Positions 2,402-13,908 of a stretch of DNA of 64,000 nt are shown one piece after another. The notes beneath the pieces were generated by a model that made no database searches, had not been told where the DNA came from, and worked only from the letters and a program-made list of their open reading frames with translations. Every line of letters begins with the position of its first letter. The first letter of the stretch is position 1. Made by a program: the position numbers and the translations under genes. The stretch comes from Minisyncoccota bacterium (lineage in GTDB: Bacteria > Patescibacteriota > Minisyncoccia > Phycocordibacterales > CAJQIN01), in assembly GCA_905478465.1 (NCBI GenBank), contig CAJQIN010000009.1, positions 2,300 through 66,299 on the forward strand. The letters run 5' to 3'.

Positions 2402-2770
2402 CTATTTTAATTTTATATACGGCTTAATAGCCCGAAGCATCCCAACTCCAAATATAGAAATAACAACCAGGGTAATGATGAGTGTTGGGAAACCGGCTGA
2501 AGCAACAAGGTAACCACCGATTGTAGCAAAGGTCACACTTGTAATATCTGTGAGGGTAAAATAAATACCCCATTCAGTGCCTTCTTTGTTTTTATTAATA
2601 CGTCGAGTAAAGATGGCCATGTATGCAGGGTAGGTAAGGGTGGTAAAGGACCCAAGGGCAAACATGAACCATGTAGGGTTGTAATGGTTGTGAATTATAA
2701 GATAAAAGAGCGGTATGAGAGCTGTCAGTCCAGAAAAGATAATCAGAAGCCAGAAATCATCTTTTTCTCC
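2402..2770 (-). pseudogene. truncated paralogue (C-terminal ~120 codons) of the membrane protein gene at 7651..8268
   Basis: About 80 % nucleotide identity to 7651..8030, with a conserved 'YPAYMAIFTR..NKEGTEWGIYFTLTDITS' peptide. Homology stops abruptly near 2770. There is no N-terminal half and no credible start. Confidence 0.6.
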
Positions 2771-2862
2771 GCATACATTAAAATTTTATATTTAAACTTG
2801 CATATATTTATATATACAAGTAAGTTTAGATTAAACTAACGTTCTTTAACAGGAGACAGAAT

Positions 2863-3889
2863 ATGAACCTTTCAACTGAAGACTACTATGTACATGCGTA
2901 TAAATTTAATGGTAAAGAAATTCAAATCCGTGACACTCTAATGGAATGGTTACCTAACCAGATAATAGATGCTCATGCACACTGCAACCTTCGGTCACAT
3001 GTGATTGAAATAAGTGATAAGGCTATGGGTCATATGTTATCAACCTTTCCATATTTCTCGATTAGGGATTCAGTAAAATTACGGAAGTCATTTTTTCCAG
3101 GAAAAACAATACAATCACTTCGTTTTGCGAAGACGTTTCGTGGTCTAGACCATAGGGCCGCCAATAAATATCTGCTCGAGTCTAGTCCTGAATATGACAA
3201 GGTCGCACTCTTTGGCTTACCTGAGGATGTTTATTACACAAATCGGATGCTACACCATCCGCGTGTTTCCGCATTAAAAATGTACTGGTCTTATGTCGAA
3301 CCTACGGCTAAAACCATCTATGAGTTTTTTCTTCCAGAAATTCTAGAAGAGGCTCAGGCATTAGATATACCAGTTGTGTTACACCTACCTAAGGTAATAG
3401 TGAACTGTATAGATGATCTTCTTTAAGGTTGTTAATGATTTTCCGAAGTTACGTATTGTCTTAGCTCATCTAGGTTTGTCGGTATTGCCCATACCTGGTC
3501 TCAAAGAATCTTTTGAGGCAATTAAACCTTTTGAAACAGTTTTCATGGATAATTCCATGAATGAATCAGCAGATGTTACAAGAGAGGCTATTTCGATTCT
3601 AGGAAGCACACGAATATTATATGGTAGTGATGAGCCGCTTAATTTGATACGGTACACTACTTATGATCATCCTCAAAAAGGGCAACGTATTGTTTCTGAG
3701 TATCCTTATCACTGGGTAGATAAGGACGAGTTTAGAGAATACGGGCATCTTGCAAAAGGAGCAGTGCATTCCCATTGGGGCAACCTACTTGCACTCCAAC
3801 AGTGTATAGATGCATTGCCAAAAAGACAGCGCACGTCAGTGAAAGAGCACATTTTTTATAAAAATGCTGCTTCGGTGTATGGTTTCTAA
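2863..3889 (+). pseudogene. amidohydrolase-2 family metal-dependent hydrolase, split by an apparent +/-1 frameshift near 3405-3426
   Basis: ORF 2863..3426 carries the N-terminal motif 'IDAHAH' and '..PVVLHLP'. ORF 3413..3889, in another frame, carries 'VLAHLG' and 'GSDEPL'. Together they make one PF04909-like protein. The junction lies in a 'tcttcttt' run. Confidence 0.55.
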
Positions 3890-3901
3890 TAAAACCAACT
3901 T

Positions 3902-3930
3902 AAATACCTCTGCATAAGAGGTATTTTTTA
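3902..3930 (+). terminator. rho-independent terminator
   Basis: 'aatacctctgcataagaggtatttttt' hairpin followed by a T-run. Confidence 0.6.
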
Positions 3931-4145
3931 ATATCAGTTAATCTACTAAAACCTGGACTAGTCATGGATTTATGAGAAATTATACTCATTTTTAAACCAA
4001 AATCCTTTTGTCGTGTATGTATTTAACGATAAGGTGTTGATTTTTATATAGGAGCATGTATTCTGTCTCTAGAGTTGATTTTTGGAGATTTTGTTCTTTA
4101 ATAAAGTAACAATTTAGTTTTTAACCCATTTCAAAGGATATTACA

Positions 4146-5498
4146 ATGTCTAATGTAAACGAGCCTATTGTTGGAATAAGTGATGTGTTTGGTGCCCCGC
4201 TTAGAAAGAGAAATTATGTAATTAATCTCTTGAGTGGCCTGGCACAGAAATTTGGATTTCAACAACTTGAGGTTCCTGTTGTTGAGAAAGCTTCGTCATT
4301 TGACGAAAAAATAGTTGGTAAGTCGCCTTGGCCTGAATGGGACAAAAGGGGTTGTTTCTATCTCATGATTGATAACTACCAGAGTAGCTACGATATGAAA
4401 TCTTCAACAGAGATGGCATTACTTAATCCCGAGGGGACTATTTCAGTTACTCGTTGGCTTGGGAAAATGATACAAGAGATAGGAGTGGATTCGTTTCCAC
4501 TAAAACTCTTTTATGATGTTCAATGTTTTCGAAATGAGTTGGTGGGTAGTTTATCGCCAATAAAACATCGCCAATTCCGCCAATTTGGAATCGAAATACT
4601 AGGTTCAGCTTCAGTTGCCGCAGACACAGAAATTGCTTGCATGATAAACCAATCCTTACTCTTACTAGGTTTCCCCCAAGAATCGGTCGTTATGCGAATT
4701 AGTGATATCCGTATTTTTAAGCAATTGATAGAAGATTCTGGTATTACCTACGAAGATAGTTTGGAAATAAAAGAACTAATGGACTCTGTTGCAGAAAGTC
4801 GCGCAGGAAAGAATCCTTCACGAGCTCCTTCTCTTAAGAAAGAGCTCTGGACACTACTTAATTCGTATAACCTCGCAGAAAAGATTCAAAAAATGTGGAT
4901 GTGTATTTTAGATGATCCCCATAACCACATATCAGAGGAAACAAAGCAATTCTTTGGTAAGGAGTATTATAGTGCCTTTGATGCGCTAATAATGCTCACA
5001 ACGTCATTACAAAGTAACAACATCACAGCTAAAGCAGACCTCTGTGTAGTTAGGTCTCATGAGTATTACACAGGACTTTCGTTTGAAATTGATGTTGTAA
5101 GTAAGTCGGCCTCATATTACGAAATTGCTGGTGGTGGACGTTTCGACAAACTCGTTTCGAGTTTCCTGACGGAAGAAGATGGTGACACAGTTGTCCCGTC
5201 AACAGGTTTTGCTTTTGGTGTTGAACGACTCATTGAAGCAGCAACAGGTTTTGGGCTTATGTCTAATCTCAAATCCTTAGAGTTCTATAGTAACTTCGAT
5301 AAGTCTTCTGCTGACACACTTTTAGTTCCAAATAGTAAAGGTAACAAATGTATTAGTTACATAAAGTGTATGGAGGAAGTTAAAAATCTTTCTCCGGAAC
5401 TTAGGACAAACATATATGTCGGTGACAGCCCCACAGGAGTAAACATTGAAAAATATGCTCTGACTTGTGGAGTCAAAAATGTCAAATTAGATGAGTAA
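4146..5498 (+). CDS. histidyl-tRNA synthetase-like class II aaRS paralogue (divergent; HisZ-like or unknown function)
   Basis: Degenerate HisRS motifs are present: motif 2 'FRNELVGS..RQFRQFGIEILG' and motif 3 'AGGGRFDKLV..GFAFGVERL'. The canonical 'GMRD.LP' N-terminus is absent. Sits directly upstream of the bona fide hisS. Confidence 0.6.
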   Translation: MSNVNEPIVGISDVFGAPLRKRNYVINLLSGLAQKFGFQQLEVPVVEKASSFDEKIVGKSPWPEWDKRGCFYLMIDNYQSSYDMKSSTEMALLNPEGTISVTRWLGKMIQEIGVDSFPLKLFYDVQCFRNELVGSLSPIKHRQFRQFGIEILGSASVAADTEIACMINQSLLLLGFPQESVVMRISDIRIFKQLIEDSGITYEDSLEIKELMDSVAESRAGKNPSRAPSLKKELWTLLNSYNLAEKIQKMWMCILDDPHNHISEETKQFFGKEYYSAFDALIMLTTSLQSNNITAKADLCVVRSHEYYTGLSFEIDVVSKSASYYEIAGGGRFDKLVSSFLTEEDGDTVVPSTGFAFGVERLIEAATGFGLMSNLKSLEFYSNFDKSSADTLLVPNSKGNKCISYIKCMEEVKNLSPELRTNIYVGDSPTGVNIEKYALTCGVKNVKLDE

Positions 5499-5606
5499 TT
5501 TATTAGAGTCTATTTGTGCCCACCATATATTGTGGTTACATGTTATTCTTCTTATGATTATAAAACTATGCGACAAACAAATCACAACTAACAAAAGGTT
5601 ATTCAC

Positions 5607-6896
5607 ATGAAAAAAATTAGAAATAAAACATCATCAGTACCAATGCGCGGCATGCGTGACTTACTTCCTGCGGAAGTTACTCTTCGTCAGGCCGTAATAT
5701 CGAAAATTAAAGAGGTGTACGTAAGTTATGGTTTCTTAGAGATTGAGACACCAATTGTTGAAAGGAGTGACTTGTTAAATACCGGAGAAGGAGGGGATAA
5801 TGAAAAACAAACCTTTGGGATAATGAAGAGAGGAATGTCGCTAGATAACATAAAGAATATATCTTCAACTCAAGATATCGTAGATGGTGGATTACGCTTT
5901 GATTTGACAGTGCCTCTTGCTCGATACTACGCAAACAATCAAGCCCAGCTTCCGACACCGTTCAAAGTTCTGCAAATAGGTAGTGTCTTCCGTGCAGAAC
6001 GTCCTCAAAAAGGTCGCTATCGTCAATTTACGCAATGTGACATTGATATTATTGGTGACGAAAGTGGTTTAGCTGAACGAGAACTTGTTCTGGCCACATC
6101 TGAGGCATTGTCTCAGGTTGGCTTCACTGGATTTACTGTGCGAATTAATGACAGACGTATTTTAAAAGGAATTGCTGAAGCGTGCGGATACAAGGAAGAA
6201 GAGTTTGAAATGGTGTTTATCACAATAGATAAACTCGACAAAATCGGCTTAGATGGTGTTGAGAAAGAGCTTTCTGAAAAAAGCAGTCAGCCTGAGGCTT
6301 CTTCAAAATTAGTATGCTTCCTTCGTAAGGTAAGTGACAATATAAAAAACAATGATTTGTTTGAGTTTCTGCCCGTAGAAGTAAGTGAATATGTTGTTGA
6401 TGAGCTGAAACAAATAATGTTGTCTGTAGAGACTCTGTCGGATGGCGAATATAAGATCGTATTCGATCCAACCCTAGTCAGGGGAATGGGCTACTACACG
6501 GGCCCTATCTTTGAAATTGAAGATAAGGACTTCCCCTCATCAATTGCTGGCGGTGGTCGATATGACAACATGATTGGAAAGTATTCTGGTAAGGATGTAC
6601 CAGCATGTGGATTCTCTATTGGTTTTGAGAGGATTATGTCACTACTTGAGGAACGTGGATCATCTCTTGTTTGTAGTAACATCAAACAGGTAGTAATCTA
6701 TGATGTACAAAATGTAAGCGATGATTACGTGCTTGCATTTGCAAAAAAATCAAGAAATGGCAATAATACTGTCTCAATTCAAAAAAGAAGAAACAACACA
6801 AGAAAACAACTTGCTGATCTTGTTGGGCTAGGGTACAGTTCGTACTGCTTGTTAGATTCTGAGCTAGATGATCCTGAGTTCAGACCCATGCAATAA
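5607..6896 (+). CDS. hisS: histidyl-tRNA synthetase
   Basis: 'MRGMRDLLPAE' N-terminus, motif 2 'FRAERPQKGRYRQFTQCDIDIIG' and motif 3 'AGGGRYDNMIG...GFSIGFERI'. Confidence 0.92.
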   Translation: MKKIRNKTSSVPMRGMRDLLPAEVTLRQAVISKIKEVYVSYGFLEIETPIVERSDLLNTGEGGDNEKQTFGIMKRGMSLDNIKNISSTQDIVDGGLRFDLTVPLARYYANNQAQLPTPFKVLQIGSVFRAERPQKGRYRQFTQCDIDIIGDESGLAERELVLATSEALSQVGFTGFTVRINDRRILKGIAEACGYKEEEFEMVFITIDKLDKIGLDGVEKELSEKSSQPEASSKLVCFLRKVSDNIKNNDLFEFLPVEVSEYVVDELKQIMLSVETLSDGEYKIVFDPTLVRGMGYYTGPIFEIEDKDFPSSIAGGGRYDNMIGKYSGKDVPACGFSIGFERIMSLLEERGSSLVCSNIKQVVIYDVQNVSDDYVLAFAKKSRNGNNTVSIQKRRNNTRKQLADLVGLGYSSYCLLDSELDDPEFRPMQ

Positions 6897-6916
6897 AATC
6901 TAAATGACTCTTGCTA

Positions 6917-6949
6917 CTGCTTTGGACAATGTCCAAAGCAGTTTTTTAT
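6917..6949 (+). terminator. rho-independent terminator after hisS
   Basis: 'ctgctttggacaatgtccaaagcag' stem followed by 'ttttttat'. Confidence 0.65.
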
Positions 6950-7380
6950 AATTCAGGGAACAATCGAAAACTACTAACCCGTATGCACTCTTTAAATAAT
7001 TATAGCAGAAGCTACCTTTGTTGGTGACCTGCCTGGTCTCAAAATAAATAACATACTGTTGTTGATTAGTCAAATACTGGTAATTTTTTCTTTAGTGATA
7101 TTAAAATAATAAACAATTTATGTTTATTATTTTCTAAAAATGAGACTGGTCTGTATAATCTATAGACACTAAAAACCTGTATTTAGTAACTGGCTTAAGG
7201 ATCATATTTTAATATTTTTAATATATAGAACACATATTTAGTATGAATATATTTTCCATAACAAGGTTTATATCGCCATTTTTGTTTTTATTTGCAATCT
7301 CAGGTGCTTGGGTCGCACAACTTATTTAGGTGCACGGGAACACGCCGATACTAAATTGTTACTGCAGGCCGTTTCGAGCA

Positions 7381-7575
7381 CTAGTTCCAATCAAACCATA
7401 AAACTATTCCTGCGGCTATCATGATAACAGCAGTTGGCACAACCAATTTCCACAAAATATTATGTAGAAAATCTTGATTTGATTTCGGTTTATTTATAAC
7501 TTTTGACTTTTTAGTAACAATTGAATCCTTTTTTTGATTCTTGAATTCGCGACAAAAAAATTCAGGGTTATCCAC
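7381..7575 (-). CDS. small hypothetical protein with C-terminal TM helix
   Basis: 64-aa ORF in a ~700-bp AT-rich intergenic region. Has a C-terminal hydrophobic helix. No recognisable homology. Confidence 0.25.
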   Translation of the reverse strand: MDNPEFFCREFKNQKKDSIVTKKSKVINKPKSNQDFLHNILWKLVVPTAVIMIAAGIVLWFDWN

Positions 7576-7650
7576 AGTGTGGGTAACCCTGATTTCTTTT
7601 TATGCGCGAAGCGACCAATTTTTGACACAATTACTTGTGAGTCTAAGTTG

Positions 7651-8268
7651 TTATTTTAATTTTATATAGGGTTTAATGGTCCATAACATTCCAACTCCAA
7701 ATAAAGATAGAATAACTAGTGTGACGATGAGAGTTGGGAAGCCCGCTGAAGCAGCAAGATAACCACCTATAACAGCAAATGCTGCACTTGTGATATCTGT
7801 AAGTGTAAAATATATGCCCCATTCGGTACCTTCTTTGTTTTTGTCAATATGTCTAGTGAAAATGGCCATGTATGCAGGATAAGTAAAAGCTGTAAAGAAT
7901 CCAAGAGCAAACTGAACTAAATATAGTTGTAGTGGCGTGTGGATTATAAGATAAAAGAGTGGTATTAAAGCCGTCAGTCCAGAAAATATAATCAACATCC
8001 AGAAATCATCTTTTTCTCCGCGTATTTTATCTAAAACATGCGCAATAGGAATTTGTAGAACACTACGTGAAAATAGGTAGACACCGGCTGCGATACCTGC
8101 CACAGCTTCAGAATTTCCATCGATAAATTCCCCAATGAATAAAGCAAAGACTGGACCAAGAAGTCCTGCTGCTCCAATAAGTATGGTATCTGATACGATA
8201 AGAAAACGAATTACAGGATTAATTTCTTTAAGAAAGTAATTCTTTAAATTAGTTGCTCGTTGTTGCAT
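7651..8268 (-). CDS. 6-TM membrane protein (MFS-like half transporter / unknown)
   Basis: 205 aa with roughly six hydrophobic helices. Its C-terminal ~120 codons are duplicated at 2402..2770. Confidence 0.5.
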   Translation of the reverse strand: MQQRATNLKNYFLKEINPVIRFLIVSDTILIGAAGLLGPVFALFIGEFIDGNSEAVAGIAAGVYLFSRSVLQIPIAHVLDKIRGEKDDFWMLIIFSGLTALIPLFYLIIHTPLQLYLVQFALGFFTAFTYPAYMAIFTRHIDKNKEGTEWGIYFTLTDITSAAFAVIGGYLAASAGFPTLIVTLVILSLFGVGMLWTIKPYIKLK

Positions 8269-8332
8269 TTGATATAAGTAAAATAATAAAAATTATAGGT
8301 CTTAGCATAGGTCCGATACTAAAACCTGTCTG

Positions 8333-8419
8333 CGGAGGGAGAGGGATTCGAACCCTCGGTACCCTTTCGAGCACTCCAGTTTTCAAGACTGGTGCATTCA
8401 ACCTCTCTGCCATCCCTCC
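8333..8419 (-). tRNA. tRNA-Ser: tRNA-Ser (anticodon UGA)
   Basis: Manual fold shows acceptor GGAGGGA/TCCCTCC, a 3-bp D stem, anticodon loop 'cuUGAaa', a long variable arm and a T-loop 'TTCGAAT'. Confidence 0.85.
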
Positions 8420-13832: not shown

Positions 13833-13908
13833 GGTGCCTATAGTGTAATGGTTAGCACTGGAGTTTGTGGAACTCCCAGTTCGGGTTCGAATCCCGGTAG
13901 GCACCCCA
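13833..13908 (+). tRNA. tRNA-His: tRNA-His (anticodon GUG) with genomically encoded G-1 and CCA
   Basis: Extra 5' G pairs with discriminator C. Acceptor GTGCCTA/TAGGCAC, anticodon loop 'uuGUGga' and a 3' 'cca'. Confidence 0.8.

Follow-up and report, generated by a model that had tools for sequence, protein, structure and literature searches.

A histidyl-tRNA synthetase (HisRS)-like gene, here called gene A, lies directly upstream of a second HisRS gene, gene B, in a 64,000-nucleotide stretch of DNA from a Minisyncoccota bacterium (contig CAJQIN010000009.1, positions 2,300 to 66,299; the window). Here we observed that A is a real gene under purifying selection and a member of a populated protein family, and that B is its conserved, co-diverging partner and no chance neighbor. 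Judged by profile scores, A belongs to the HisRS family, but is neither a hisS nor a hisZ equivalog. It is probably a synthetase paralogue of the type recruited to non-translational chemistry, in this case on the HisRS branch. We tentatively favor a model in which A would form the catalytic core of a small "histidyl-conjugate" module that is horizontally mobile, activating histidine directly with ATP and serving a non-tRNA acceptor. The genes of the module, and the tRNA that bears on B, are the following.

2863..3889, forward strand: Amidohydro_2-family gene, split into open reading frames (ORFs) 2863..3426 and 3413..3889; recurrent third component of the module
4146..5498, forward strand: gene A, encoding a 450-aa HisRS-like paralogue that belongs to the strict "SPWPEW / AE[CS][RK]AGK / RSHEYY" family
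5607..6896, forward strand: gene B, HisRS of 429 aa (417 aa from an alternative start at 5643), the conserved partner of A
13833..13908, forward strand: tRNA-His(GTG) with encoded G-1, C73 and CCA, the substrate expected for B

Gene A and its family

A preliminary description of this DNA had reported a 450-aa ORF with class II HisRS motifs 2 and 3. The ORF and the quoted strings "CFRNELVGSLSPIKHRQFRQFGIEILG" (motif 2), "AGGGRFD" and "GFAFGVERL" (motif 3) were confirmed, and the motifs are also present upon alignment. The predicted protein has three parts: the catalytic core, an insertion domain that is specific to the family, and, at the C terminus (residues ~375-450), a small alpha/beta domain. 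It matched Pfam tRNA-synt_His with 96.7 bits across all 308 profile positions. Against NCBIfam hisS (TIGR00442), A scored 150.3 bits, below the equivalog cutoff of 286.75, which B passes with 321.7 bits; the two proteins are 26% identical. Among the HisZ models TIGR00443 and PRK12292/12295, the best score of A was 131.5 bits (cutoff 271.65), and all 17 other HisZ models were far under cutoff. The earlier designation of A as a divergent HisRS paralogue is thus well founded. By contrast, the "GMRDLLP" N terminus said to be lost has only diverged: A has "GISDVFG" as its in-register counterpart, and the family conserves G10 and D13 to at least 90%.

The HisRS-specific HisA (R-G-x-x-Y-Y) and HisB (GGGRYD) motifs are found in A together with class II motifs 2 and 3. 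At the active-site positions of Escherichia coli HisRS, A is identical at 16 of 18, the differences being R121K and, in the window copy only, Y288F. The identical positions include the motif-2 R/E, R259, YY, GGGR[YF]D, and the motif-3 R, most of them invariant over 28 diverse members of the family. A retains E115 and R123, and has K at position 121. In HisRS enzymes, the motif-2 loop (RPQKGR) contacts G-1:C73 of tRNA-His. This loop is replaced in A by "LVGSLSPIKH", with a 3-residue insertion. The mean charge of the loop is +0.5 for A versus +2.5 for B, and overall protein acidity is higher in A, net charge being a suggestive gauge of tRNA binding only.

An AlphaFold (AF2) model of A has a full-length HisRS fold and was of high confidence (predicted local distance difference test score, pLDDT, 90.9; predicted template modeling score, pTM, 0.91). 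The PDB structures closest to it were HisRS enzymes from trypanosomes, Thermus, and humans, the tRNA complex 4rdx being among the best HisRS matches, and HisZ ranked lower. Neither A nor B matched Pfam HGTP_anticodon. The AF2 models of both place a short beta-alpha-beta-alpha-beta domain at the C terminus, which in A is weakly conserved and slightly acidic.

A protein database search with A retrieved hundreds of relatives, of which the best 120 all scored above 320 bits, were ~445 aa long, and were 37-86% identical. Their hosts are Saccharibacteria and other bacteria of the candidate phyla radiation (CPR), Actinomycetota (Streptomyces, Frankia, Nocardiopsis, Sphaerisporangium, Kitasatospora), Firmicutes (Carnobacterium, Risungbinella, Eubacteriales), and Acidobacteria. 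Named entries among these proteins carry the label "ATP phosphoribosyltransferase regulatory subunit" or "histidyl-tRNA synthetase". The closest named relative (86% identity) is from a metagenome-assembled genome (MAG) of an uncultured Candidatus Saccharibacteria (locus L011), and related genes occur in further Saccharibacteria, including the complete TM7i genome. With respect to L011, the ratio of nonsynonymous to synonymous substitution rates (dN/dS) of A is 0.10, from which we conclude that A is selectively maintained.

In an alignment of the 28 diverse members, more than 60 positions are invariant. The family-specific motifs G-x-SPWPEW (58-65), KE..D..AE[CS][RK]AGK (209-222), and RSHEYY (303-308) set the strict A family cleanly apart from the sister groups that occur in DPANN archaea, in Dojkabacteria, and in some of the Saccharibacteria. 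SPWPEW and the invariant insertion-domain motif KE..D..AE[CS][RK]AGK point to a putative new binding site. One sister family, from DPANN archaea and metagenome contigs (L029, L030, L034, L035, L117-L126), consists of shorter A-like proteins of 362-387 aa without SPWPEW or the C-terminal domain. The gene behind them consistently encodes a creatininase-family hydrolase or an M42 aminopeptidase, and often a B-like HisRS gene follows. We had considered whether the archaeal A-like gene and its ~240-aa neighbor could be HisZ and HisG; the small gene is a creatininase-family hydrolase or M42 peptidase, not HisG. In several actinomycete loci, A is frameshifted or fragmentary (L018:1384-2727, L024:10001-10756, L036:355-1023, L040:9998-10432). 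The neighboring B is still intact in L018, L036, and L040, so that A can decay while B persists.

HisZ, the regulatory subunit of the short form of ATP phosphoribosyltransferase, is likewise derived from HisRS and keeps the histidine pocket, and annotation pipelines give its name to the A family. As positive controls, we used HisZ proteins from incidentally fetched alphaproteobacterial loci, which score ~350 bits to the HisZ model, and a verified HisG query (165 bits; cutoff 76). In tblastn searches, this query had a match beside every control HisZ, but detected no hisG in the window or in any of ~40 A-family loci (best E-value >2). The control HisZ proteins lack E115, R121, and R123, and keep the remaining pocket residues that were checked. 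Because A keeps 16 of the 18 positions, including motif-2 residues missing from these controls, it is more HisRS-like than HisZ. A also carries a C-terminal alpha/beta domain that HisZ lacks, and adjoins HisRS and hydrolase or biosynthetic genes, whereas HisZ pairs with hisG. On these grounds, with hisG sought in the window and in the A-family loci, the identification of A as a HisZ/HisG subunit was rejected, and the view that A is no orthologue of HisZ withstands these controls. HisZ proteins are reported to lack adenylation activity. Since the controls also keep most pocket residues, conservation of the pocket alone is no proof of catalysis, and this weakens the argument that A must be active because all catalytic residues are retained.

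The partner HisRS and its surroundings in other lineages

Although the preliminary description took B for a canonical hisS, it is only 27% identical to E. coli HisRS, carries the archaeal/eukaryal-type signatures RFDLTVP, NDRRIL, and DKLDK, and co-evolves with A as its conserved partner. B contains all catalytic motifs, its motif-2 loop RPQKGRYRQF is the same as in E. coli, it has the C-terminal domain, and the sole tRNA-His of the window is of the standard G-1:C73 type. For these reasons, B, an archaeal/eukaryal-like HisRS, is credible as a working enzyme and is probably the one that this organism uses. Its dN/dS is 0.09 in comparison to L011. B is 44-50% identical to the A-adjacent HisRS genes of Carnobacterium, Risungbinella, Sphaerisporangium, and a Pyrinomonadaceae MAG, which represent four phyla.

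To survey the pairing of A and B, seed proteins were mapped onto all fetched loci, and metagenome contigs were taken from an independent scan. Of the 24 distinct loci from genomes, 18 had B at a distance of no more than ~3 kb from A, and so did 13 of the 15 metagenome contigs that were informative. For some A genes (L006, L016, L023, L025, L107), no B lies inside 10 kb. Pairwise identities of A and of B co-vary over 13 loci (mirror-tree r = 0.93, Mantel p <= 2e-4). The A-B pair of the Saccharibacteria locus L013 is nearest to the Acidobacteria pair (A/B 64/55%), not to the window pair (44/48%), which indicates transfer of the pair as a unit.

In the window, A and B are separated by a 108-nt spacer and flanked by the following sites on the same strand.

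3902..3926, forward strand: terminator-like hairpin after the amidohydrolase gene, separating it from the A-B transcription unit
3959..3986, forward strand: promoter-like site upstream of A, only a weak match to the consensus
6916..6942, forward strand: strong terminator-like hairpin with a T-run, immediately 3' of B

With terminators predicted before A and after B, and no terminator-like hairpin within the 108-nt spacer, A and B are probably bicistronic and co-transcribed.

B-type enzymes are also found without A. On the CPR contig L093, a lone B that is 64% identical to the window B directly adjoins Fer4 and Peptidase_U32 genes. L096 has the same Fer4 and Peptidase_U32 neighbors, and there an A gene (74%) is wedged between them and B (79%). 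Based on this synteny, B looks like the resident, housekeeping HisRS in the CPR lineage of the window, A having been gained or lost just upstream. Actinomycetes and Firmicutes presumably have B as an extra copy beside a standard hisS; the mobile-element setting of the Carnobacterium module agrees with this. Lone B-type HisRS genes, 56% identical to the window B, were also observed on marine contigs (L089/L090/L091, ~4342-7251), where their neighbors are a serine recombinase gene and genes for metal transport. Such a setting hints at mobility of the B-type hisS genes themselves.

Accessory synthetases are known from other pathways, for example AbmK, an extra seryl-tRNA synthetase (SerRS) in the albomycin cluster (PMC8323819), and hisRS2, an extra synthetase in a lactobacillal histidine decarboxylase cluster (PMC4122935). 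They are precedents for a synthetase gene carried along with a pathway that uses its amino acid, and B in actinomycetes and Firmicutes resembles such a gene, accompanying a pathway that consumes histidine or targets the housekeeping enzyme. The window B differs in that B-type enzymes stand alone at the syntenic CPR locus, so that it is probably a housekeeping enzyme and not an extra copy.

The hydrolase position beside A is occupied by non-homologous enzymes, namely Amidohydro_2, creatininase-family, M42 peptidase, or DDAH-like proteins. Creatininase-family enzymes or M42 peptidases are the hydrolase partners in DPANN archaea, and DDAH-like enzymes in other CPR bacteria. In Saccharibacteria and Dojkabacteria (L027, L031, L033, L112, L113), an A-like gene is followed by a DDAH/arginine-dihydrolase-like enzyme, with a 7TM histidine kinase in three loci; L113 has A together with genes for a DDAH-like enzyme, a B-like protein, and an Amidohydro_2 protein (59% identical to the seeds). 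A divergent polyprenyl-synthase-like partner was found in 10 genome loci and in several metagenome loci, often with an APH-family kinase; many actinomycetes have genes of both kinds with A. Further partners include FkbM-type methyltransferases and ABC exporters. In Eubacteriales, A and B accompany a major facilitator superfamily (MFS) transporter and two ATP-grasp ligases, and one A gene is located inside a nonribosomal peptide synthetase (NRPS) cluster. The A protein of Carnobacterium is a fusion that carries a PP-binding domain with a GLDS motif at its N terminus, and its gene has two AMP-binding enzymes and an ABC exporter as neighbors. The fusion is present in P0028 and P0031, and the three-gene cassette of the window contains no carrier gene.

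Other synthetase genes occur near two of these modules. In an Acidimicrobiia MAG (L036:3578-4876), a class I Trp/Tyr-type tRNA synthetase directly follows the remnant of A, B, and a polyprenyl-synthase-like gene, as the second aminoacyl-tRNA synthetase (aaRS) of that cluster. In L013 (3651-5305), A-B is followed by a 100-aa ORF with a weak match to the C terminus of prolyl-tRNA synthetase, and then by a class II synthetase of 451 aa that has an HGTP anticodon domain. The latter two ORFs are possibly a rearranged or split prolyl-tRNA synthetase. Some homologous loci are positioned in mobile or defense-like islands, and an anti-phage role was therefore considered. No protein model of PADLOC-DB matched A, B, the polyprenyl-synthase-like protein, or either half of the amidohydrolase.

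Possible functions of gene A

In the model that we tentatively favor, A would bind histidine and an adenine nucleotide, probably form histidyl-adenylate itself, and pass the histidyl group to a non-tRNA nucleophile, which in some lineages could be the phosphopantetheine of a carrier protein. B would keep tRNA-His charged while A draws on histidine, or would be insensitive to the product of A, or both. The neighboring hydrolase, here the frameshifted Amidohydro_2 protein, would remove or process the histidyl group. We infer catalysis by A, the non-tRNA acceptor, and the roles of B and the hydrolase from the features described above. The remodeled and less basic motif-2 loop, the new insertion-domain motif, the higher acidity, and the carrier, NRPS, and ATP-grasp contexts all point A away from tRNA-His. 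The preliminary description had listed amino acid ligation to a non-tRNA acceptor among several possible roles. In view of the carrier fusion, the NRPS and ATP-grasp contexts, and the altered acceptor-stem loop, this putative role is the best supported of its ideas. Nothing in our analysis supports the editing role that was also mentioned.

A precedent is found in the amino acid:carrier-protein ligases of Mocibob et al., SerRS-like proteins that, as outlined in PMC9437257, transfer the amino acid they activate to a phosphopantetheine arm and not to a tRNA. Like the A family, these are class II aaRS homologues, and one type of A is fused to a PP-binding domain. They arose, however, from an atypical SerRS and have lost the tRNA-binding domain, whereas A is derived from HisRS and has a C-terminal domain.

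Several observations weigh against this model. The cassette of the window consists of three genes, and genes for a carrier or for building a scaffold are absent from its vicinity; a common metabolite, or something encoded outside this region, would thus have to serve as the acceptor. The C-terminal domain of A shares its topology with the anticodon-binding domain of B, which leaves room for tRNA binding. In Carnobacterium, it could be the AMP-binding enzymes next door, and not A, that load the fused carrier domain. The window copy of the hydrolase gene is frameshifted while A remains under selection, so that the hydrolase is not obligatory. Finally, the retention of most pocket residues in the control HisZ proteins makes residue conservation weak proof of catalysis by A.

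An arrangement related to ours is the experimentally characterized AcmD/AcmF/AcmE trio of the ascamycin cluster. In the account given in PMC12945691, which cites Zheng et al. 2024, the cluster-encoded alanyl-tRNA synthetase (AlaRS) AcmD supplies Ala-tRNA and resists the product, the AlaRS-like AcmF aminoacylates sulfamoyl-adenosine, and the hydrolase AcmE removes the alanyl group. AcmF is described there as truncated, lacking activation residues, and forming its own clade (PMC12945691). By analogy, A could take His-tRNA(His) from B and transfer the histidyl group to a small molecule in the former AMP pocket, with B as the supplier and resistant target and with the hydrolase cleaving the conjugate. 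The trio of a genuine aaRS, an aaRS-like enzyme, and a hydrolase matches AcmD, AcmF, and AcmE. The tight linkage and co-divergence of A and B, the topology of the C-terminal domain of A, and the exporters in several clusters are also consistent with such a mechanism. However, the parent enzyme is HisRS and not the class II AlaRS, the acm cluster carries nucleoside-sulfamate genes where the window cassette has only its three genes, the loop of A for reading the acceptor end of tRNA-His is remodeled and less basic, and some A genes have no B nearby. The residues for ATP and amino acid activation that AcmF has lost are invariant in A, a full-length protein. Because A, unlike AcmF, keeps all activation residues, we favor direct activation over aminoacyl-tRNA-dependent transfer, which appears possible but rather unlikely.

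It is quite unlikely that A still charges tRNA, either as a second, specialized HisRS that serves under stress, in an antibiotic-resistant state, or with an unusual tRNA, or as a subunit of a heterodimer with B. Class II HisRS enzymes are dimers, which is compatible with the latter, and A combines a full-length HisRS architecture and HisRS as its best structural matches, among them a tRNA complex, with all activation residues and probable co-transcription with B. Against this, A scores far below the hisS cutoff, its loop does not conserve the residues that read G-1:C73, its insertion domain has been exchanged for a family-specific one, and the only tRNA-His in the window is of the standard type. 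B-type enzymes evidently work alone in syntenic, related CPR genomes (L093 compared to L096), and a carrier fusion and NRPS or ATP-grasp contexts would not be expected for an enzyme of translation. A role as a HisZ-like, non-catalytic histidine sensor, which would regulate the hydrolase, the polyprenyl-synthase-like protein, or B instead of HisG, is very unlikely. The retained histidine pocket, an enzyme partner that always adjoins A, the public annotation as HisZ, and the precedent of a HisRS paralogue turned allosteric subunit (PMC9437257) would agree with it, but A falls under all HisZ model cutoffs, its loci lack the hisG that accompanies every true HisZ control, it keeps E115, R123, a basic residue at 121, and the C-terminal domain unlike HisZ, and such a set of non-homologous partners is awkward for a specific protein-protein regulator. 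That A is a decaying hisS duplicate without a function of its own is scarcely tenable. The neighboring amidohydrolase is frameshifted, and remnants or frameshifted copies of A exist in L018, L024, L036, and L040; yet the dN/dS of 0.10 together with the conservation effectively refutes decay for the window copy, and the family has hundreds of full-length members with more than 60 invariant positions across phyla, and A a high-confidence AF2 model.

A more specific version of the histidyl-conjugate model can be envisaged, although we think it unlikely to be correct. The amidohydrolase, A, and B could form a self-contained mobile system, in which ordinary HisRS is poisoned by a histidyl antimetabolite (histidyl-adenylate-like or other) that A produces, B is both the insensitive target and the supplier, and the hydrolase is an immunity or activation enzyme. 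If so, the cassette would be a minimal chemical weapon or counter-weapon of an epibiotic Saccharibacterium toward its actinomycete hosts, which carry enlarged versions of the module. It would then also be the first natural pathway to an inhibitor directed at HisRS, and A would be the first HisRS paralogue with catalytic activity.

According to a 2022 review, HisZ is the only bacterial paralogue derived from HisRS (PMC9437257), and histidine goes unmentioned in a 2026 review of biosynthetic enzymes that resemble aaRSs. Our literature searches for the A family found no description of it. If the histidyl-conjugate model is correct, the HisRS branch would join the short list of synthetase-like enzymes in small-molecule chemistry, which includes amino acid:carrier-protein ligases, AcmF, and SbzA. 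Hundreds of database entries misnamed HisZ would be corrected. The pairing of A with a second HisRS could serve in genome mining as a marker for possible new histidine-derived metabolites or HisRS inhibitors. The presence of A in ultra-small Saccharibacteria, and of a sister family in DPANN archaea, is unexpected given that these organisms have so little biosynthetic capacity.

The amidohydrolase gene and the probable mobility of the cassette

The preliminary description had noted a frameshifted amidohydrolase gene directly upstream of A. The frameshift is confirmed, but the gene is not incidental debris: it is a recurrent third component with homologues at other A/B loci. One extra T at "CTT CTT TAA G" (~3421-3424) accounts for the split. 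Its removal yields a 341-aa protein that is collinear with intact homologues and preserves the HxH, His, and Asp ligands. The identical break is present in four independent assemblies from different samples. Intact homologues adjoin A/B in TM7i (L022), in the actinobacterium Svornostia (L026), and in the metagenome contig L113. At the same site (3415-3426), a +1 slip of peptidyl-tRNA-Leu from CUU to UUU at the in-frame stop would restore the protein exactly. The recoding site of prfB (CUU UGA C) has the same geometry, a +1 slip from CUU at an in-frame stop. No Shine-Dalgarno-like stimulator is visible upstream of the amidohydrolase site, and the frameshift may thus simply be a recent 1-nt insertion.

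The three genes are bracketed by a direct repeat.

2403..2780, no strand assigned: left repeat copy, a partial 3' copy of an MFS gene, with an 87-aa remnant ORF at 2402..2665 on the reverse strand
7652..8029, no strand assigned: right repeat copy, inside the full MFS gene at 7651..8268 on the reverse strand

The copies share 80-87% nucleotide and 82% amino acid identity and are spaced 5249 nt apart, which suggests that the cassette was inserted or recombined from a related lineage. The locus of the 86% relative (L011) has only A and B in common with the window. The repeat and this limited overlap indicate that the cassette moved or was inserted as a block. In Carnobacterium, the module lies in an element bearing integrase and Rep genes. 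Carriage by phages or plasmids was also considered; no relatives were found in viral contigs, and two queries retrieved none from the PLSDB plasmids.

The 750-nt spacer after B was examined as a source of an alternative RNA acceptor and discarded: the sole Rfam hit scored 23 bits (threshold 80), and the predicted fold is dominated by a hairpin that is most readily interpreted as a bidirectional terminator. A 14-bp perfect hairpin at 7562-7592, with an A-run and a T-run on its flanks, is probably a bidirectional terminator for the MFS gene. This transporter gene, whose 3' end is duplicated, is half-size (205 aa), and a tRNA-Ser gene (8332-8419) is located just past the right repeat copy. About 2 kb upstream, at 1609-1977 on the reverse strand and beside RuvX, a 122-aa stand-alone tRNA-binding-domain protein (Pfam tRNA_bind) is encoded, probably by an unrelated housekeeping gene.

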